Assembly (NCBI GenBank): GCA_964621445.1
Contig: CAZUNO010000001.1
Location: forward strand, 40,496 to 104,495
From: Candidatus Hadarchaeota archaeon
GTDB taxonomy: Archaea > CAYQAE01 > CAYVLA01
DNA: 64,000 bases
Direction of reading: 5' to 3'
Translations under genes and position numbers: made by a program
Shown here: in pieces, positions 1 through 8,327 of the stretch
How the letters are laid out: the number at the start of each line of letters is the position of its first letter
Numbering within the stretch: the first letter of the stretch is position 1
The notes under the pieces: generated by a model
What the model saw: the letters and a program-made list of their open reading frames with translations, nothing else
The model's database searches: none
Told to the model about the DNA's origin: nothing

Positions 1-2
1 GA

Positions 3-1172
3 ATTGACGGAGAGGTTCTCTTCTCCACCGAATCGACCCGTTTGGCTTTTCTCGCCTTAGCCCTGATGGGATTCGCCATCGATGCGGCGGTGGTGCCTCT
101 CCATATTTGGCTTCCCGGAGCACTTGCCGAAAGCCCCACGCCGATAAGCGCTCTTCTGTCTGGAATCGTGGAGAAGACGGGGATATATGGGATGATTCGA
201 TGTTTCTACTTCGTGGGGGGGATGCCGGCTAATTGGTCTGAGCCGATCCTTGTCCTTGGTTTTCTCACTGCTTTTGTTGGGGTATTTCTGGCTCTGTTCC
301 AGATGGACGGGAAACGTCTCATCGCGTTCTCCACTATTTCACAGATGGGTCTGATAGTTGCCGGGATAGGCAGTGGCTTGGCCCTGGGGGTGACCGGGGC
401 CTTGTATCATGTCCTTAACCATAGCATTTTCAAGTCCCTCATATTCCTTTCGGCCGGCTGGGTCATGTGGTCGGCAGGGACACGTGATTTGCGAACTATA
501 TATAGATCAAGGTCCTCGAGTCCTCTTCTTCTTACGGCTTTCTATATTATCGGCGTCCTCTCGATTTCAGGGATTCCACCGTTTAATGGGTTCTACAGCA
601 AGTCAGTGATTGCGAAGGCCGTCCATCCCGAGTATCCCTTGCTTGCTGGACTCCTCTCCCTTGTTGGAATGTTTACGATCCTTACCTTCGCCAAGCTGGG
701 TTGGTATCTATTCCGTTCAAGTGCGGGCGATGAAAATATACGAAACCCGTTTCCGCTGGTGATTGCGTGCGGATCGCTGGGGACGATGTGCGTGCTGCTA
801 GGATCCGCCAGTGGCCTGGTAGTGAGAGGGTTCAGCGGTATCATGGAGTCCGAACTGGTGGTAACGCCAAAAATCCTGAGCCTCTCAGCGACGACCTTGA
901 TAGGTTATGCCGGATTCATCGGGGCATTTTTTATTTGGTTGAGGAAAAGCCAGATTTACGGATCGCTGACCGAGGGAAGGCTCGGTTTTGTGGGTCGAGT
1001 GGCTCGGAAAGGTCTTTATTTCAATGATGTTGCGGCGTTGCTTGGCCGGGGATTCACCAAGCTTGCGAGTGTTGTTACCATGAGTGCTTCAGGTCTTCAC
1101 CGAGACTACGGTCTTTATATCGTGATTGTCTGGATGGCTGCCATGGTTTTAGTGGTCGGGGGTGTACTTTAA
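3..1172 (+). CDS. Mrp/Mnh antiporter-like subunit (MrpD/MrpA-N, proton-conducting membrane transporter family), 5'-truncated by window edge
   Basis: Frame is open from base 3. Motifs PLHIWLPGA..ESPTPISALLSG, KRLIAFSTISQMG, HVLNHSIFKS and GIPPFNGFYSK; many TM helices. Confidence 0.9.
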   Translation: MDGEVLFSTESTRLAFLALALMGFAIDAAVVPLHIWLPGALAESPTPISALLSGIVEKTGIYGMIRCFYFVGGMPANWSEPILVLGFLTAFVGVFLALFQMDGKRLIAFSTISQMGLIVAGIGSGLALGVTGALYHVLNHSIFKSLIFLSAGWVMWSAGTRDLRTIYRSRSSSPLLLTAFYIIGVLSISGIPPFNGFYSKSVIAKAVHPEYPLLAGLLSLVGMFTILTFAKLGWYLFRSSAGDENIRNPFPLVIACGSLGTMCVLLGSASGLVVRGFSGIMESELVVTPKILSLSATTLIGYAGFIGAFFIWLRKSQIYGSLTEGRLGFVGRVARKGLYFNDVAALLGRGFTKLASVVTMSASGLHRDYGLYIVIVWMAAMVLVVGGVL

Positions 1173-1701
1173 CTTGCAGGTTATCTGGCTACAGCTGTCT
1201 GGCTTACTGTCGGTTTTGGCCTGCTCAGTTCTGGTCATTCGCTTCAGGGATCTATTATCCTGCGCCATTGCATTGGGGGCGGCAGGTTTTTTTGTGGGGT
1301 TGACCTACTTCACCATGGGGGCCACAAATCTCGGTGTTGTCCAGCTTTTGGTGGAGGTAATCAAAACCTGTATCTTGATTTTAGTCGTATCTAAGACTCA
1401 CAGGGTGGGCTTCTCTGTCGAAAGGACAAGGGTTCGATTATCGATAGCTGCGGTCCTAGCCGTTGTGTTTATCCTTTTCTCCCTGTTTGTCACGCCAGCG
1501 ATATCTTCATACGGAGGAAAGCCCTCCGAACTCTCCGATCGATATTCCAAGGAGGCGGATGAACTGACCGGGGCCAGTAATGTTGTGACCGCTATCCTTC
1601 TGGGATTCAGGGCCTATGATACTGCAGGAGAGGTCTGCGTATTTTTCGTAGCTACCCTCGGTGTTGTCATTGTTCTCACCAAAACAGGAGGCGAGTCTTA
1701 A
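1162..1701 (+). CDS. Mrp subunit matching the MrpA C-terminal part (DUF4040 + MbhE-like)
   Basis: Motifs NVVTAILLGFRAYDTAGE and QLLVE; hydrophobic; overlaps upstream gene. Confidence 0.85.
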   Translation: MYFNLQVIWLQLSGLLSVLACSVLVIRFRDLLSCAIALGAAGFFVGLTYFTMGATNLGVVQLLVEVIKTCILILVVSKTHRVGFSVERTRVRLSIAAVLAVVFILFSLFVTPAISSYGGKPSELSDRYSKEADELTGASNVVTAILLGFRAYDTAGEVCVFFVATLGVVIVLTKTGGES

Positions 1702-1702
1702 C

Positions 1703-2104
1703 TTGTCCTTACCAGTTCGGACCGTGTCCCGATTGCTAGCCCCCCTGTTCGTGGTATATGCGGCCAACCTTATAGTCACGCAGGCGACAGCTCCTGGTGG
1801 TGCCTTCGCCGGAGGTGTGGTCGTGGGAGTGACCGCATTCCTGATCATAGTTGGTGAGGAGATGAGGAATGTGATCACTAGGTTCACTTCCTGGCTTGAG
1901 GCGGGTAGGGCCGCAGGTTTTGGTCTGGTTCTAATAGCCAGTTTGTTGGGGGTTGTATTCGGAGGGACTTTTCTCAGTACGGGGTCGTGGTTGGGATTCG
2001 ATTCCTCGCTGCTTAACCTTTTCGGGTTTGCCGCTGGCATAGTAGTTGGGTGCGAGATAGTTCTGGCCTTCGACAAGATGATCCGGACGGAGGCGACCAA
2101 ATGA
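1703..2104 (+). CDS. mnhB: MrpB/MnhB-domain subunit
   Basis: PGGAFAGG motif. In-frame TTG at 1703 follows GGAGG at 1687-1691, preferred over the ORF-track start at 1661. Confidence 0.8.
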   Translation: MSLPVRTVSRLLAPLFVVYAANLIVTQATAPGGAFAGGVVVGVTAFLIIVGEEMRNVITRFTSWLEAGRAAGFGLVLIASLLGVVFGGTFLSTGSWLGFDSSLLNLFGFAAGIVVGCEIVLAFDKMIRTEATK

Positions 2105-2448
2105 GTATCAATGTGGGCATGGTTGTCTACAATCTATCATTCCTCCTTATGCTCTTGGGGATATACTGTGTGTTATGCCATAGCGATATCATCAAGGTGG
2201 TGTGCGGCCTGTCGATTTCGGGTTATGGCGTTACCCTTTTTGTTATCCAGATTGGATACACCCAGAGTGGATCTACCTCAGCTGCTGGAGTCTTCGTTCC
2301 CTCCATGGACCCCTTAATGGAGGCCCTGGTCCTAACAGCGGTAGTGATCGAGACGGGCTTCATGATGCTCATGCTGGCAATAGGGATCAGAATCTTCCAG
2401 CAAGAAGGCCACACGGATCTTAGCCTCCTAAGGAGGTTACGCGGTTGA
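2101..2448 (+). CDS. mnhC: MrpC/MnhC subunit
   Basis: DPLMEALVLTAVVI motif; C-terminal LRRLRG; ATGA overlap with the previous stop. Confidence 0.9.
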   Translation: MSINVGMVVYNLSFLLMLLGIYCVLCHSDIIKVVCGLSISGYGVTLFVIQIGYTQSGSTSAAGVFVPSMDPLMEALVLTAVVIETGFMMLMLAIGIRIFQQEGHTDLSLLRRLRG

Positions 2449-3911
2449 GCCATCTCTACTATCTAGTGGTCCTGCCATTGATCGGGGCAGTGCTGGCCTT
2501 AGTATTTGGCAGGTGGCGCAGAACGAATATATTGATGGCCTCCTTGGTGCTGGGGGCCATGGTGGTCTCAGTAATCAGGATAGGTTTGGATATTTTAGAT
2601 CAGGGTATTGTGACCGAGAGTGTGGGCGGCTGGCCCCTTGGGATGGGCCTCGGGATGGCACTCGACTTATTGGGGCTAGTAATGATAGCGGTTGTAATAG
2701 GACTCTCGGTGATTTCGTTTATCTACTTCTTTGGGAAATTGGAGAGCGATGAGAGGCAATCGAAATTCTACAGCTTGGTCTTCTTCCTAACGGCTGGCTT
2801 GATGGGAATGACGCTGGTTACGGATGTCTTTAACCTATTTGTATTCCTGGAGCTTTCGTCAGTATCGACGTGCGTTCTGGTATCATTCAATGGGGGTATG
2901 GAGGATTTAGAGGCCGCCTTGAGGTACATAGTGCTGGGAACGATAACGAGCTTTGTATTCTTGGGGGGCATCGTTCTTGTTTATGACCAAGTGGGAAGCC
3001 TGAATATGGGAAGCATCGGGGTTTTCATGCGAAATGGGAATGGCAACATCATGACGGATGTCTCGGTGGTAATGATGGCCATCGGGCTGGGATTTCCAGC
3101 CGCCATCTTTCCTCTTCACACATGGTTACCCGATGCCTTTTCAAGGGCACCGTCGGCCAGTACTGCCTTGCTCGCCGGGGCATCGAAGCAGGTGTGTTTT
3201 TACGCTATCGTGAGACTTTTCAATCAGACCATAGGCCTTAATTCTGTATCGATATTGAGGTTGATCCCCTGGATCGGTCTAATGACCGCACTCTTCGGCG
3301 CGCTTATGGCGTTGGTTCAGGTAGATATCAAGAGACTTCTTGGATACACGACCGTCGCCAGCGGAGGTTTTGCGCTGGCATTAGCGGGAATTGGCACCGC
3401 GAGAGGATTCCAAGGTCTGGTTCTACATATGATTAATAGTGCGCCGGCAAAAGCCGTTTTGTTTCTGTCCGCCGGGTGCCTGATATATGGGCTGTCTGTA
3501 CGGGATTACCGGGATATGAAGGGCGCTTGGAGCACCATGCCGGGAGTTTGCTCGGCCTTCCTGGTCGGATGTTTGGCGGATTTAGGTGGTCCTTCACTTG
3601 GATTCTTCAGCAAGGCCTACATGATGTTTGCGTTCTTGGAAACCAGTCCCCTGATGGGATTGGTTGGTGGGCTGTCAACAATATTGATTGCGGCGTCGTA
3701 CATCAAGGTGATTCAAGCCATGGTTTCATCTCCGGATAACGGAGAGGGGTCTAAAAGTGTACCGAGCCCTATGATGATTGCAATTGGGACCTTGGTGGCC
3801 TCCATTATACTATTGACCCTCCTGTTCTGGCCTTTGATCTCCTTTGCAGAGAATACCTCAATCCAAATAATCGATACCGTGAGATTGATAGAAGCAATGG
3901 TTGGGATATGA
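2445..3911 (+). CDS. mnhD: MrpD/MnhD subunit
   Basis: Motifs VGGWP, DVFNLFVFLE, EAALRY, PLHTWLPDAF and DIKRLLGY; about 14 TM helices. Confidence 0.9.
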   Translation: MSHLYYLVVLPLIGAVLALVFGRWRRTNILMASLVLGAMVVSVIRIGLDILDQGIVTESVGGWPLGMGLGMALDLLGLVMIAVVIGLSVISFIYFFGKLESDERQSKFYSLVFFLTAGLMGMTLVTDVFNLFVFLELSSVSTCVLVSFNGGMEDLEAALRYIVLGTITSFVFLGGIVLVYDQVGSLNMGSIGVFMRNGNGNIMTDVSVVMMAIGLGFPAAIFPLHTWLPDAFSRAPSASTALLAGASKQVCFYAIVRLFNQTIGLNSVSILRLIPWIGLMTALFGALMALVQVDIKRLLGYTTVASGGFALALAGIGTARGFQGLVLHMINSAPAKAVLFLSAGCLIYGLSVRDYRDMKGAWSTMPGVCSAFLVGCLADLGGPSLGFFSKAYMMFAFLETSPLMGLVGGLSTILIAASYIKVIQAMVSSPDNGEGSKSVPSPMMIAIGTLVASIILLTLLFWPLISFAENTSIQIIDTVRLIEAMVGI

Positions 3912-4411
3912 TGAGAAAAGAAGGACTGGCTGTATTCGCGTTATCGTACCTTTTCTGGCTTCTGGTCACCCCGGTCCTCGAGACATGGTACCTGCTGTCC
4001 GGGGTCTTGGTTTGTACTTCTGTTGCCTGGGCATTCTCCACCTATTCTTTTGAGGAGATATCGCTGTCTATCCTGGATCCAAGGAAATGGATTTACTTTG
4101 TCAGGTATATCTTGATCTTGGGCTGGGGCATATTATTGGCGGGAATATCGCTGGCCAAAATCATTCTGAAACCGAATATAGAGATACATCCAGGGGTTGT
4201 GGTCATACCGACCAGTTTGGAAAAGCGCTGGGAAAGGACGCTTCTCGCCAACTCGATAACGTTAACACCGGGCACCTTCTTCCTGGACATGGATGAGGAT
4301 GAGGGCCTTCTCTACATTCACTGGATATCCATGAAATCTGAAAGACTGGAGAAGATCAGAGAGATGATCACTGAGAGGTACGAGAGGATTATCGGAAAGG
4401 TGTTTGAATGA
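3908..4411 (+). CDS. mnhE: MrpE/MnhE subunit
   Basis: LLANSITLTPGT and LYIHWI signatures. Confidence 0.93.
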   Translation: MMRKEGLAVFALSYLFWLLVTPVLETWYLLSGVLVCTSVAWAFSTYSFEEISLSILDPRKWIYFVRYILILGWGILLAGISLAKIILKPNIEIHPGVVVIPTSLEKRWERTLLANSITLTPGTFFLDMDEDEGLLYIHWISMKSERLEKIREMITERYERIIGKVFE

Positions 4412-4668
4412 TCCAGTACTTTGCTTGGCCATCGCTGATGATACTCATAATTTCCCTGTTGTTATGCTTCTATAGGCTGGCTAAGGGTCCATCGGCCGCC
4501 GATCAGCTAACGGCGTACGGAACCCTGAGTTCCATGTCTATAGGGATCTTCATGTTGGCTGGGGTGCTGGTTGATACACTTTTCCTGGAGGCAGTCATAC
4601 CCCTGGCCCTAGTCTCATTTGTGGCCATCCTTCTCATAACCCGTTTCCTGGAGGGTGAGGTGGGATGA
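4408..4668 (+). CDS. mnhF: MrpF/MnhF subunit
   Basis: RLAKGPSAAD motif; three TM helices; lies between mnhE and mnhG. Confidence 0.88.
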   Translation: MIQYFAWPSLMILIISLLLCFYRLAKGPSAADQLTAYGTLSSMSIGIFMLAGVLVDTLFLEAVIPLALVSFVAILLITRFLEGEVG

Positions 4669-5711
4669 ATATTTTGGAGGTGATGGTCCAGATGGTGGCC
4701 GGTTCCTTCATGTTGTTTGGGAGCTTCTTTGCCTTGGTTGGAAGCCTTGGACTTGTGAGGCTGCCGGATCTTTATACCAGACTTCATGCCGGTTCGAAGG
4801 CCGTGACGCTGGGTGTAACTGGCCTCGCCATCGGTTCACTAATAATGGCCCCCAGTATATCGGCAACTACAAAGATATTATTAGCCATGGCTTTCATATT
4901 CTTCACTGCTCCAATAACCTCGCATGCGATCGGTAGAGCGGGGTATTACAGCGGCGAGAGGATGTGTCCAGAAACCGTGAAGGACGATTACGAGGCCTAT
5001 GCAATACTTGATCGTAGGGAGAAGCTGTTGAAGGCTCGGGTCAAGGGCCGGGCTTGGCTGGGTGAGAAGAGACAACGGGAGGTTTTTGACCTGGCAAGAC
5101 AGCACATGGACCAGACCCTGGAAGCGGTCCGGGTAATGAACGAGGCGGTGGCCGATTTCCTGAAGGGTGACCTTGAGAATATGGAGGAGGAGGCCGCAAG
5201 GACGATTTCTCTGGAAAATGAGGCGGATAGACTTGCGGTTGAGGCCTTGGAGGTAATATCCAAGTCCGAGCTCTCCCCTGAGGATCGTGGCGACCTTCTG
5301 AACCTTGTTTACAGGGTGAGAAACGTAGGCACCGCGGCAAAAGCCCTGGCCTACAGGTTGGAGCTTGCCGAGGAGTATCACTTTCCAAGTAGAGTGGTCC
5401 CGGGTCTCCAACGACTAGCGGATGCGGTAATGGAGACCGTCGAGACTCTATCATCGGCGGTAACCGAACTCAACAACGACCTGGTCTTGGCCGAGGAGCT
5501 ATCTGATCTGGTCTCCGAGTTGGAGGATATGGTTGATCGCATGCGCAGGGACCTGGTAAAGGTACTCCTGAAGGAAGCGAGGCTTCTGGACGCTGCTTCG
5601 TTCTTCGTGGTTAACGAAGTGATAATGAGATTAGAGGATCTGGCTGATTCATGCGAGGAAACTGCCGATCATATACGGATAATATCGGTAAAGTACCTGC
5701 GGCTTATCTAG
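4665..5711 (+). CDS. mnhG: MrpG/MnhG subunit fused to a C-terminal DUF47 (PhoU-like helical) domain
   Basis: N-terminal GLVRLPDLYTRLHAGSK and TAPITSHAIGRA (MrpG). C-terminal LENEADRL, DRGDLLNL and EDLADSCEETAD (DUF47). One uninterrupted 348 aa ORF. Confidence 0.88.
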   Translation: MNILEVMVQMVAGSFMLFGSFFALVGSLGLVRLPDLYTRLHAGSKAVTLGVTGLAIGSLIMAPSISATTKILLAMAFIFFTAPITSHAIGRAGYYSGERMCPETVKDDYEAYAILDRREKLLKARVKGRAWLGEKRQREVFDLARQHMDQTLEAVRVMNEAVADFLKGDLENMEEEAARTISLENEADRLAVEALEVISKSELSPEDRGDLLNLVYRVRNVGTAAKALAYRLELAEEYHFPSRVVPGLQRLADAVMETVETLSSAVTELNNDLVLAEELSDLVSELEDMVDRMRRDLVKVLLKEARLLDAASFFVVNEVIMRLEDLADSCEETADHIRIISVKYLRLI

Positions 5712-5782
5712 TTCCAATTTTAGTAAATTTGCGATGCTGTAAGGGATAAACAGGTCTATCCTTTCAATAGAGATACCCATGA

Positions 5783-7027
5783 ATGCTATTTATCGAGGTA
5801 ATTCTCTTCTCCCTGGCAGGGGCCTGTCTCGGTATACTGACAGGGTGTACCCCGGGGATCCATGTGAATATGGTTTCGGTTATGATCATTGGCATATATG
5901 CCACCTCCTCTTTGGATCCCGTTCTGTTTGCGGCCCTGGTGATGTCAATGGCCGTTGTTCAGACCTTTCTGGATATTTTACCCGCTATCTTCCTGGGAGC
6001 ACCCGACCCGGATACGGCGCTATCGGTCCTGCCGGGACATAGAATGCTTCTTGAGGGTAAGGGTTTCGAGGCCGTCAAGCTTTCGACGATTGGAAGCCTG
6101 GGGTCGGTTATCCTCGCGACAAGCCTGGCCCTGCCAATGATCTTCATTCTACCAGCGGCATATCCGGTGATTTCCTATTTTCTTTACCCCCTGCTAGTTG
6201 TCTTGGAAGTAAGCATCGTTATGACCGAGAAAACGGCCAAAAAGATGCTTTACGCGCTGCTAGTTCTGGTTTTGAGCGGGATCCTGGGAATGTTGGTCAC
6301 CAATTCAGGGTTCATGCCCACGGACAAGGCCCTATTCCCGGCGCTATCCGGTCTCTTTGGCGTTTCCACCCTTCTATTAAGTTCTGAGAGCGGGGCAAAA
6401 ATTCCCGATCAGGTCATGGATGTGGAGGTTACCATGAGAAAGCTTACCATGGCTAAATCAATAGTGGTCGGGTTCCTGGCAGGAATGACCACTGGAATCC
6501 TTCCCGCCGTCGGCAGTGCTCAGGCCACCATTCTCGCCCAGAGGGCCAGCGGCGAGAGTGATCATCGGTCATTCATGGTCGCTGTAAGCGGTGTTAACAC
6601 CGGAAACATGATCTTCGGGTTAGTTGCTCTGTATACCATAGGGAAGGCGAGAAATGGAGCCGTGCTTGCGGTGGAGGAGATACTCGGTGGAAATCTGGAT
6701 TTAAGCCTGCTTCTCATGTTTCTAGGGGTGGTCTTGATGTGCGGGGGGTTGGGAGCGATTTTGACCCGGGTCGTCGGGGGCCTATTCGCTTCAAGGATTA
6801 GTAGGGCTCCCTATATACCCCTTACCAGAGGAATTATAGCTCTAATTACCGTCCTGGTATTGATAATAAGCGGGCCAAAGGGAGTATTGGTATTGATTAC
6901 CGCCACTTTTGTTGGATTCCTCCCGCCCATACTGGGGGTCAAGAGAGTCCATAGCATGGGATTTCTCATGATACCCACATTGGTCTACTTTTCTGGTTAT
7001 CAATCATTCTTCCTGGGCCTGCTTTAG
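5783..7027 (+). CDS. TctA/DUF112-family integral membrane protein (archaeal type)
   Basis: Motifs GILTGCTPGIHVN, FLDILPAIFLGAP and LSVLPGHRMLLEGKG. Confidence 0.88.
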   Translation: MLFIEVILFSLAGACLGILTGCTPGIHVNMVSVMIIGIYATSSLDPVLFAALVMSMAVVQTFLDILPAIFLGAPDPDTALSVLPGHRMLLEGKGFEAVKLSTIGSLGSVILATSLALPMIFILPAAYPVISYFLYPLLVVLEVSIVMTEKTAKKMLYALLVLVLSGILGMLVTNSGFMPTDKALFPALSGLFGVSTLLLSSESGAKIPDQVMDVEVTMRKLTMAKSIVVGFLAGMTTGILPAVGSAQATILAQRASGESDHRSFMVAVSGVNTGNMIFGLVALYTIGKARNGAVLAVEEILGGNLDLSLLLMFLGVVLMCGGLGAILTRVVGGLFASRISRAPYIPLTRGIIALITVLVLIISGPKGVLVLITATFVGFLPPILGVKRVHSMGFLMIPTLVYFSGYQSFFLGLL

Positions 7028-7079: not shown

Positions 7080-8327
7080 TTACTTCAGTTTGAGCTTGGT
7101 CAGCTCAACTGCTTTGTATAGACGCCTTTTGATCATTAGCACCCAGAGAATTGATCCCGTAAACATTGCCGTCCCGGTAACCACGCACCACTCGGTGAAG
7201 AAAATCCAAAAGGCCGCTTCGTCACGGATTTCTATTGCCTTTTCCATGGCCTGTTGGCACATTAAGAGGGTCTCATCGAATTCTTCAACCGCCTGGTCAA
7301 GCTCGGCGCTCACGTAGTGATCGAGGGCCTTCCTCTTTTGCCCCTGGATATCCTGTATCATCATGTTTATCTGGTTCCCGCTACCGCCGAATCTCTCAAC
7401 TATGTCGACCATGCTGTAGAGGGTGCTGAGGCCTTCGCTGGATTCCCTTAATCTCCTCCTAACCAGGTACATCAGTTCAAGATCATCGGGAAGCTTCTGA
7501 CCGGCGAGGAAAAGCATCATGTTTATGCAGTAATCCCCGTAATAGCGCCAGGTCATGAACTGGTTCCCGCCCGCGGGCGTCCAATCTGCGGACTGGGCCA
7601 TGGTTCTCCCTTCACCTATATCCCACCACATCAGGAAAGGCAGGGTTCCCATGCTGCCCTTTACCAGCTCGGCTAGATAATTAGCCCTCGATCTTGGTTG
7701 TATATTGTTACTGCTGTGGAAGTACCCAAACGCACCTATTTCTTCAAAGGGAAGGCTATCGATAAATTCATCTTCCCAATCGAGTATCCTTATCCTTCCG
7801 CCAGAGAAGGTTAGTGCGGAGGGAATCATGTCACAGGGCAATATATCGGCCACCGAAGTTGGCCCCCAGGACGGGTAGCCTCCTTTCTGGGCGAAGCTCT
7901 CTGCACCACCTATCATCACAAGGCCCTGGCCGCCCTCTTGAACCCCGTCCTTCATCCAGGTGAAATGATCATGTCTGAAGGAGTTCTTATTGGCATCGCT
8001 GAGGACGACAACGTCCTGCTTCAGGTAATCCTCATATCTCCTGGGCATGTATGCCCTCACGCTTTTCTTTATCTGTTCCAACCTCTGGTGGGCGGTGCAG
8101 GCGTATACAGCGGTGCAGTAGAGAAGGGGGTCCTGTTCCATTATGGGGAAGGGGTTTGGGACACCCATTGCATCCCCGATATAGATTACCCTGACCTTTC
8201 CGGTTTGGGGGTCAACTCTCGGTTCTCGTGCCAGGCAGGTAGGCAGGAGAAATATCCCCACCAATACCAGGGAGAGGATAAGAACATGAATTTCTGGGAT
8301 CTTCAACATAATCGACTGGACGCTCAT
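7080..8327 (-). CDS. Uncharacterised signal-peptide, GATase-like-fold, single-pass membrane protein (paralog 1 of 4)
   Basis: N-terminal signal peptide. DVVVLSD, GLVMIGGAESF and VADILP resemble DUF1355/class-I GATase-like domains. Helical region, C-terminal TM and basic tail shared with three other ORFs. Confidence 0.75.
   Translation of the reverse strand: MSVQSIMLKIPEIHVLILSLVLVGIFLLPTCLAREPRVDPQTGKVRVIYIGDAMGVPNPFPIMEQDPLLYCTAVYACTAHQRLEQIKKSVRAYMPRRYEDYLKQDVVVLSDANKNSFRHDHFTWMKDGVQEGGQGLVMIGGAESFAQKGGYPSWGPTSVADILPCDMIPSALTFSGGRIRILDWEDEFIDSLPFEEIGAFGYFHSSNNIQPRSRANYLAELVKGSMGTLPFLMWWDIGEGRTMAQSADWTPAGGNQFMTWRYYGDYCINMMLFLAGQKLPDDLELMYLVRRRLRESSEGLSTLYSMVDIVERFGGSGNQINMMIQDIQGQKRKALDHYVSAELDQAVEEFDETLLMCQQAMEKAIEIRDEAAFWIFFTEWCVVTGTAMFTGSILWVLMIKRRLYKAVELTKLKLK

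Follow-up and report, generated by a model that had tools for sequence, protein, structure and literature searches.

A stand-alone Mrp-type operon beside a scaffold gap

The 64,000-nucleotide stretch of DNA analysed here, called the window below (G000:C1:40496-104495, where G000 is the genome under study, Candidatus Hadarchaeota archaeon), opens with an eight-gene operon at positions 3-5711. The genes are translationally coupled, either overlapping or abutting, with four-base start/stop overlaps at the B/C, C/D, D/E, E/F and F/G junctions, and encode a stand-alone Mrp-type (CPA3) cation/proton antiporter of a Hadarchaeota-type archaeon (Table 1). In both large subunits of this complex the canonical lysine of transmembrane helix 7 (TM7; other helices are numbered likewise) is replaced, and several residues of the small subunits that line the cation path are changed as well.

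A Pfam search matched PF00361 twice, together with PF13244+PF20501, PF04039, PF00420, PF01899 and PF03334, while MrpF scored 23.1 bits against PF04066, for which the cut-off is 23.3. The same families were named by NCBIfam, where MrpG alone reached an equivalog cut-off (112.2 bits versus 102 for NF009314 and 97.9 versus 63.1 for TIGR01300); the other subunits remained far under theirs, MrpD for instance with 233.8 bits versus 662. The Group 1 Mrp complexes of Bacillus pseudofirmus (7QRU), Anoxybacillus flavithermus (6Z16) and Dietzia (7D3U) have the A-B-C-D-E-F-G order and the subunit families in common with this operon. Unlike in these complexes, MrpA is split here into an N-terminal subunit and a separate MbhD+MbhE protein, and a DUF47 domain is fused to MrpG.

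Table 1. Genes of the operon and the permease gene downstream, with positions in the window, the matches that identify them, and the ratio of nonsynonymous to synonymous substitution rates (dN/dS; Nei-Gojobori, G000 versus metagenome contig L114, genes 82-94% identical)
Product	Positions	Strand	Matches (with E-value, E) and remarks	dN/dS
MrpA-like (NuoL/MbsH'-like) antiporter subunit (A)	3..1172	+	PF00361, E 9e-42; C-terminal 389 aa only	0.20
MrpA-C, separate MbhD+MbhE protein corresponding to the MrpA C-terminal module	1162..1701	+	PF13244 + PF20501	0.08
MrpB	1661..2104	+	PF04039; start codon uncertain	0.10
MrpC (NuoK-like)	2101..2448	+	PF00420	0.11
MrpD-like antiporter subunit (D)	2445..3911	+	PF00361, E 2e-51	0.17
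MrpE	3908..4411	+	PF01899, E 3e-37	0.11
MrpF	4408..4668	+	NF009300, E 3e-14; alignments to five solved MrpF/MbhB/MbsB chains	0.075
MrpG-DUF47 (PhoU_div) fusion	4665..5711	+	PF03334 + PF01865	0.04
TctA-like permease	5783..7027		PF01970	

A scaffold gap of 100 N (C1:40396-40495) lies directly 5' of window base 1. Subunit A begins upstream of it, at C1:40348, and about 195 of its N-terminal residues are lost in the gap, as judged from the G001 orthologue; a tblastn search of the whole assembly with the N-termini of the G001 and L116 orthologues recovered no additional piece. The earlier description of all open reading frames (ORFs) as intact and coupled, made in a sequence-only reading of this DNA, thus holds for the seven genes wholly inside the window, which show real overlaps and no frame breaks, and fails for the first, which the gap cuts. 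The N-terminal half of gene A is also broken in G003 (by the contig start) and in L114 (by the contig end), and read-derived contigs are of low depth and reveal a second strain, which differs at 47 places over window positions 1-346. A mixture of strains probably caused the breaks in this gene.

Four sets of relatives served for comparison: three same-family genomes (G001, G002 and G003, MrpD 38-47% identical); metagenome contigs closer to the window (L114, MrpD 82% identical, and L115); a contig pair labelled Thermoplasmata UBA9212 whose fusion protein is 46-48% identical (L116/L038); and a Hadarchaeota-labelled operon without the fusion (L040/L118).

Changed and retained residues along the ion path

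To our knowledge, the pair of a TM5 Glu and a TM7 Lys is central to every current coupling model of Mrp, MBH and respiratory complex I. Canonical positions were set by aligning the subunits with HMMER to chains of solved Mrp, MBH and MBS structures and, judging from the flanking P-L-H-x-W-L-P-D-A motif, the alignment at TM7 is unambiguous. In subunit A the Lys position of the pair is taken by Asp27 (GAT, 81-83, in GFAIDAAVVPLH), which faces the Lys of MbsH' (6u8y_X, the best solved match of this subunit) and of 7qru_D, and the Leu of HycC. In MrpD the same position is Pro218 (CCA, 3096-3098, in GLGFPAAIFPLH), which faces the Lys of MbhH (6cfw_H), 7qru_D and 6z16_D. It also stands opposite the Glu of MbsH (6u8y_H), E219, located at the TM7 kink (PMC7684303); an acidic TM7 in some Mbx/Mbs subunits was the precedent named in the sequence-only reading. 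The pair has been called strictly conserved (PMC9568556), and in B. pseudofirmus the complex survives the exchanges MrpA-K223A and MrpD-K219A, whereas Na+/H+ antiport is lost (PMC5703873).

Apart from TM7, the readable relay of subunit A is preserved, with TM8 Lys58 (174-176) and TM12 His140/Lys144 (420-422, 432-434); the TM5 Glu is present in the orthologues of G001, G002, L116 and L040. MrpD is altered at more places. Its TM5 Glu136 (2850-2852) is kept, but in TM8 (AGASKQVCFYA, 3174-3206) the Lys of the pair Lys248/Gln249 (3186-3191) sits one place early, 25 instead of 26 residues after the conserved Pro. In the segment MINSAPAKA (3429-3455), Ser332 (3438-3440) replaces the His four residues before TM12 Lys336; the reported change of NH..K to NSAPAK is thereby right for the His, while the Lys (3450-3452) is retained. 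As far as the sequence is readable, the two large subunits share the TM5 Glu and the TM12 Lys with Group 1 Mrp, but neither has its TM7 Lys.

The small subunits combine retained and altered residues along the cation path. In the sections of the structural literature cited here, a putative Na+ exit tunnel is lined by Asp678, Thr682 and Asn766 and bordered by MrpA 676-688 and 763-780, MrpB 33-45 and MrpC 66-82 (PMC9568556), and in A. flavithermus H37c and H40c coordinate cations at a site completed by S36c, S80c and N702a, where the cations interact with E137d and E706a in a "double cavity" proposed as the coupling point (PMC7419157). MrpA-C, aligned to 7d3u_A, 6z16_A and 7qru_A, has Asn56 (1327-1329, within ATN, 1321-1329) for the Asp of APD/AVD, which is Asp678 in B. 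pseudofirmus numbering, and Gly148 (1603-1605, within GFRAYDT, 1603-1623) for Asp771, the Asp of DFR/DYR, which is Asn in MbsE. MrpB (6u8y_E, 6z16_B, 7qru_B) carries Ala42 (1784-1786) at the position of His34 and no His before PGG (TQATAPGGAF). MrpC (6u8y_G, 6cfw_G, 7qru_C, 6z16_C) has two glutamates, Glu74 (2320-2322, within DPLMEALVLTAVVIE) at Gln70, the Gln of DPLPQ, and Glu84 (2350-2352) where Anoxybacillus has Ser80, a cation-coordinating residue. In MrpF, the peptide DQLTAYG (4501-4521) has Gln33 (4504-4506) for Arg and Gly38 (4519-4521) for the second Asp. The replacements in MrpA-C, MrpB and MrpC and the Gln33 of MrpF set the operon apart from Group 1 Mrp. In the mutagenesis passages for B. 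pseudofirmus, MrpF-R33A loses about 70% of activity, and MrpC-Q70A and MrpA-P677G remain active but have a less stable complex (PMC5703873). Every codon and peptide listed in the sequence-only reading was found where it had been placed, and the substitutions hold up in the alignments to solved chains; MrpC Glu84 was absent from its list.

In common with Group 1 Mrp, MrpA-C keeps Glu65 (1354-1356), equivalent to Glu687, and Arg150, Asp153 and Glu157, equivalent to Arg773, Asp776 and Glu780. Likewise shared are MrpB Pro45 and Phe49 (Pro37 and Phe41), MrpC Thr79 (Thr75), MrpF Asp32 (4501-4503), the TLTPGT motif of MrpE (Thr120, Pro121), and the Pro83 break of MrpG, in which the LYTRLH motif is kept too.

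Rarity, distribution and ancestry of the substitutions

TM7 residues were scored by a rule checked on solved chains, in which the TM7 Lys lies 5 residues before, and the TM8 Lys 26 residues after, the Pro of P-[LF]-H-x-W. An apparent TM7 Thr/Ser in nine bacterial MrpA proteins of about 800 aa, suggested by hidden Markov model (HMM) columns, was discarded, the Lys being present as an insert column; Val/Ile rows in L064, L098, L044, L048, L090, L103 and L092, where the spacing differs and the Lys is one place nearer, were counted as Lys. Among the 163 domains of the best 150 MrpD cluster representatives out of 1.84 billion, TM7 was Lys in 139, Glu in 11, Arg in 6, Pro in 3, Val in 1 and Gln in 1, with 2 unassigned; the Pro residues are found in the window's own protein and in two of its close relatives, and the Val in the sister branch. 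The loci around MrpG homologues (L035-L192) gave 248 domains, with Lys in 218, Lys one place nearer in 7, no assignment in 7 and a non-Lys residue in 16. Twelve of these 16 come from the window's clade, several being one lineage fetched twice, and the remaining four have Glu (L062, L094) or Asn (L075, L085). In 35 domains from the loci of archaeal relatives, TM7 was Lys in 27, Gly in 3, Thr in 2, and Glu (MbsH-like), Asp and Leu in one each, with 3 more domains unassigned; a non-Lys TM7 therefore does exist in archaeal multi-subunit complexes and is already known from MbsH, HycC and other archaeal subunits.

For the small subunits, the background consisted of 148 loci without the MrpG-DUF47 fusion. 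Whether the changes are widespread in ordinary Mrp, which the sequence-only reading had named as a ground for dropping its interpretation, depends on the residue. Gln70 and Thr75 of MrpC (87/87 each), Asp678 of MrpA-C (77/77) and the Asp-Arg pair of MrpF (113/113 recognisable hits) are invariant, and Ser80 of MrpC is Gly in 47 and Ser in 40 of the 87 sequences and never Glu. Asp771 is less strict (Asp 86 and Ser 13 of 99 recognisable hits), as is the Gly-His of MrpB (86/120 pattern hits), so that the losses of these two residues have parallels elsewhere. The cation-binding His37/His40 pair of Anoxybacillus MrpC is a Bacillus trait; since His40 is Asn in 81/87 of the background, the Tyr/Thr found here is unremarkable.

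The substitutions are all real, and mapping them on the relatives shows that they do not form the single package first proposed but three nested layers that differ in age. The widest layer spans the clade, with its Hadarchaeota-type genomes and a Thermoplasmata-type MAG. The MrpD TM7 Lys is replaced by Pro, Ala or Thr in the family (7, 1 and 1 of nine clusters including the window's) and by Val in L116 and L040 and in two sister-branch clusters, and the loci of G001, G002, G003, L114, L115, L116 and L040 agree with the cluster result. MrpC Ser80 is Glu in 10/10 clade rows versus 0/87 in the background. The MrpD TM5 Glu is kept in all clade members, and the TM12 Lys in all except the L040/L118 branch, where it is Thr. 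The MrpD-like protein of L040 (7752-9230) is without all three lysines (TM7 Val, TM8 Asn, TM12 Thr).

The acidic TM7 of the MrpA-like subunit, also part of the widest layer, follows the fusion. It is present in each readable fusion operon, as Asp in G000, L114 and G001 and as Glu in G002 and L116 (in G003 the position falls before the contig start), and in 13/13 protein clusters at 41-100% identity (Asp 12, Glu 1). L040, whose MrpA-like subunit lies at 4641-6440, and two like clusters have a TM7 Lys and a TM8 Gly. The proposed test of whether the substitutions co-occur with the MrpG-DUF47 fusion was made in this way, and the co-occurrence is real but complete only for the acidic MrpA-like TM7, whereas the MrpD Lys is also absent from the fusion-free L040.

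The second, family-wide layer comprises MrpF ADQLxAYG, the loss of MrpB His34 and MrpA-C GFRAYDT, where L116 and L040 retain ADR..ALN, GH..PGG, APD, LLDYRAYDT and DPL(P/L)Q. The narrowest layer, confined to G000 and its 89% relative L114, consists of ATN, DPLME, NS for NH and the TM8 Lys one place early. At the last position the family varies: one of the nine clusters has the canonical MrpD TM8 Lys, two have it displaced and six lack it. A Methanolliviera-labelled genome (G041) holds a DUF47 fragment 50% identical to the fusion and gave no match to the L116 MrpD query. The second MrpD-like genes of G042 and G043 were considered as clade members and rejected, as they lie in Mbh-type clusters and have the Lys.

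A FastTree phylogeny of 130 MrpD-type proteins (7 clade members and 123 representatives of 440-560 aa, midpoint rooted; other lengths and P0018-P0022 were left out) placed the seven Lys-less MrpD proteins in one clade with a support of 0.92, with five Lys-bearing proteins as its sister. Because the Lys-less proteins form a single clade, one old loss of the MrpD Lys is the simplest reading. With dN/dS at 0.04-0.20 in all genes, the operon is not decaying, and the original argument against decay is supported on two counts, by these ratios and by the TM7 changes common to a monophyletic clade. The substitutions are an old trait, kept by selection across a small archaeal group.

Ion specificity and competing readings

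We propose, with moderate confidence and from sequence comparison, that the operon encodes a working Mrp variant of a small, old clade, whose charged axis would have been rebuilt around a more acidic coupling site and a lysine-poor MrpD. The complex would still perform cation/proton exchange. Since the ladder of residues in MrpE, MrpG and MrpF, Glu65, MrpC Thr79, Asp153 and Glu157 is retained, cations are expected to pass through the small-subunit module, entering past the retained MrpE, MrpG and MrpF residues, reaching Glu65 of MrpA-C, and then being held in the MrpC/MrpD cavity, with Asp153 and Glu157 of MrpA-C as the probable exit end. This cavity would have two extra uncompensated negative charges compared with Bacillus, the unpaired MrpD Glu136 and MrpC Glu84, and in G000 a third, MrpC Glu74; the gain of Glu74 and the change of Asp678 to Asn in this genus could amount to one charge relocated within the tunnel wall. 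At the A/D interface, the usual Lys and Glu of A with the TM12 Lys of D would become Asp, Glu and Lys. In support of this reading, a column comparison found no clade-specific conserved basic residue in MrpD as a replacement; the background-conserved charged columns of MrpD are kept in the family except at TM7 and TM8, and at His332 in this genus and Lys336 in L040. The family-specific conserved charges of the MrpA-like subunit are a His close to the TM5 end and an Arg preceding the conserved Lys of TM6.

Protons would move mainly through the MrpA-like subunit, whose relay is complete apart from TM7, and the lysine-poor MrpD, with its TM5 and TM12 ends kept, would act as a coupling or cation-side element rather than a second canonical proton channel. 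With the relay kept in the MrpA-like subunit and only these two ends in MrpD, a single canonical proton path and a cation site of more anionic character are to be expected; the proton-to-cation ratio, the cation preference or both would then be different, and the exchanger is probably gated by the cytoplasmic DUF47 domain of MrpG. Ion specificity may be altered, possibly away from Na+, as the sequence-only reading had suggested; in favour of this is the remodelling of the coupling site by Ser80 to Glu in the clade, Gln70 to Glu and Asp678 to Asn in this genus, MrpF Arg to Gln in the family, and the unpaired Glu136. Other cations are within the reach of the family, since K+ or Ca2+ is carried by some Mrp complexes, namely those of Thermomicrobium roseum (Ca2+/H+) and Sinorhizobium Pha1 (K+/H+), in the account given in PMC5703873.

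Two solved complexes offer partial likenesses. MbsH of the Pyrococcus furiosus MBS (6U8Y) combines an acidic TM7 with a TM5 Glu, a TM8 Lys and a TM12 Lys, which is the pattern of the MrpA-like subunit (PMC7684303). In MBS, however, it is the MrpD-equivalent beside the small-subunit module that has the acidic residue; in this operon the MrpA-equivalent has it, and the MrpD-equivalent has a neutral one. MBS also belongs to a redox complex, whereas this operon stands alone. In HycC of the Escherichia coli formate hydrogenlyase (7Z0S) the Lys is replaced by a neutral residue, Leu208, and the TM5 Glu is kept, as in the MrpD-like subunit (PMC9474812); in HycC this pair occupies the membrane-exposed end of one terminal subunit, whereas the MrpD pair of Mrp faces the cation-coupling cavity.

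Several observations weigh against a rebuilt, specificity-altered exchanger. Most residues of the Na+ path are kept (Glu687, Arg773, Asp776, Glu780, MrpF Asp32, MrpB Pro37/Phe41, MrpC Thr75, and the MrpE Thr/Pro and MrpG Pro), and TM5 of subunit A falls in the gap and is unreadable in G000. Subunits A and D have the highest dN/dS of the operon (0.17-0.20) and are among its least conserved proteins in the family, at about 35-50% identity versus 66-78% for MrpG-DUF47. With an MrpD TM7 that may be Pro, Ala, Thr or Val and a TM8 Lys that is not constant, the pattern resembles relaxed constraint on MrpD rather than the gain of a specific new function. Moreover, K219A and K223A abolish antiport in B. 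pseudofirmus (PMC5703873), and by this measure the complex would be expected to show no antiport. Ordinary Na+/H+ exchange together with relaxed constraint on MrpD fits the data almost as well.

This last possibility, an ordinary Na+/H+ Mrp that transports as in Bacillus or Methanosarcina and in which the substitutions are lineage drift tolerated by a robust, water-filled charged network, is the best-placed alternative, and we regard it as rather unlikely. It accounts for the gene order, the presence of all seven Pfam families and the conserved core residues of MrpA-C, B, C, E, F and G. It also agrees with the Glu and Arg found at TM7 in 11 and 6 of the 163 domains, with E219 of MbsH (PMC7684303) and Leu208 of HycC (PMC9474812), and with the MrpC His pair being a Bacillus peculiarity. 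It is at odds with the K219A and K223A results, which come from one tested system, and with the background invariance of Gln70, Asp678 and the MrpF Asp-Arg and the complete lack there of Glu at Ser80, and the acidic MrpA-like TM7 in 13/13 clusters argues for selection of a new residue and not for drift.

A bolder form of the rebuilt-exchanger reading, which we judge unlikely, is that the operon represents a distinct Mrp class in which the Lys-Glu pairs, regarded as indispensable to coupling throughout the complex I superfamily, have become carboxylate-only sites and the complex transports regardless, perhaps with a divalent cation or two Na+ per cycle, one proton channel, and a PhoU-like (DUF47) domain that senses the state of the cell in control. 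If so, nature would have selected a functioning "K219/K223 knock-out".

Alternatively, the MrpD-like subunit, or perhaps both large subunits, could be a scaffold that moves no ions, with the job done by the small subunits and DUF47, which might form a regulated cation leak, act as a sensor or work together with the TctA-like permease. We consider this quite unlikely. The conservation pattern is in its favour, MrpG-DUF47 being the most conserved protein (66-78% identity, dN/dS 0.04) and A and D the least conserved large ones, and so are the loss of the MrpD TM7 Lys in all clade members, that of the TM8 Lys in 6/9 family clusters, the further absence of the TM12 Lys from the L040 protein (Val/Asn/Thr), and the TctA-like gene 3' of the fusion in G000, G002, G003, L113, L114 and L115. 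However, the dN/dS of A and D still denotes strong purifying selection, the family keeps the MrpD TM5 Glu, the TM11/12 His, the TM12 Lys and other background-conserved charges, and in L116 the TctA-like gene does not adjoin the fusion.

A reading of the operon as the membrane part of a respiratory complex of the MBH, MBS or formate hydrogenlyase type that has gone unrecognised is very improbable. The best solved matches do point in this direction (MbsH' for A, MbhH for D, MbsG for C, MbhB for F and MbsA for E), as do the TM7 precedents in MbsH and HycC. However, no redox module (NuoB/C/D/H/I-like or hydrogenase genes) was found in or beside the operon in G000, G001, G003, L114 or L116, and the Mbh-type group 4 hydrogenase cluster of G000 lies on another contig (G000:C3:59400-68900, minus strand) with a full Mrp-like subunit set of its own (MbhA-H-like membrane subunits), including the sole other PF00361 gene of the genome, its antiporter-like subunit. 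Decay or an assembly artefact, in the form of a dying operon or a chimeric metagenome-assembled sequence, is almost certainly not the explanation: the gap in gene A, the low coverage (a mean word depth of about 2-10x per bin in the runs that contain most of the operon) and the second strain would fit it, and it is contradicted by the same substitutions in the independent assemblies G001, G002, G003, L113-L116 and L038, by the seven unbroken genes and by the dN/dS values.

In the preferred reading of a remodelled but working exchanger, the significance of the clade is that both TM7 lysines are absent under purifying selection in metagenome-assembled genomes (MAGs) labelled as two archaeal phyla, with an extra carboxylate where the Anoxybacillus structure shows cations. 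It thereby provides a natural test case of whether the Glu/Lys pair is needed for coupling or just for one stoichiometry or cation, and it gives the MrpG-DUF47 fusion a defined molecular context.

The fusion itself is known in 16 protein clusters, and occurs with no TctA-like gene after it in the Thermoplasmata-labelled MAG; a search of one literature collection found no paper on it or on this Mrp variant. Between the window and L114, nucleotide identity is about 76-90% across mrpA-G but 65-75% across the DUF47 part and the TctA-like gene (4900-7000). The DUF47 protein is nonetheless about 89% identical, with a synonymous rate (dS) of 1.6 versus 0.5-0.7 for the mrp genes. The drop may mark a recombination boundary or separate histories of the two halves.

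Among sequencing runs, 90%, 82% and 29% of the operon's sampled words occur in DNA runs labelled microbial mat metagenome, which may include the sample of origin, and in a hypersaline-lake-metagenome run from another study a relative covers all 30 bins. No RNA run was found among those listed for the operon. Directly 5' of gene A lies a 192-aa ORF without a Pfam match (G000:C1:39727-40305; locus L201, 3728-4306), conserved 5' of the G002 operon as well (L034, 1626-2192). On the 3' side, TctB and TctC were not seen alongside the TctA-like permease, which is followed by a GATase1-like protein with a predicted membrane anchor (7080-8327, minus strand) and a URO-D-family protein (PF01208; 8413-9471, plus strand) that is possibly a methyltransferase.

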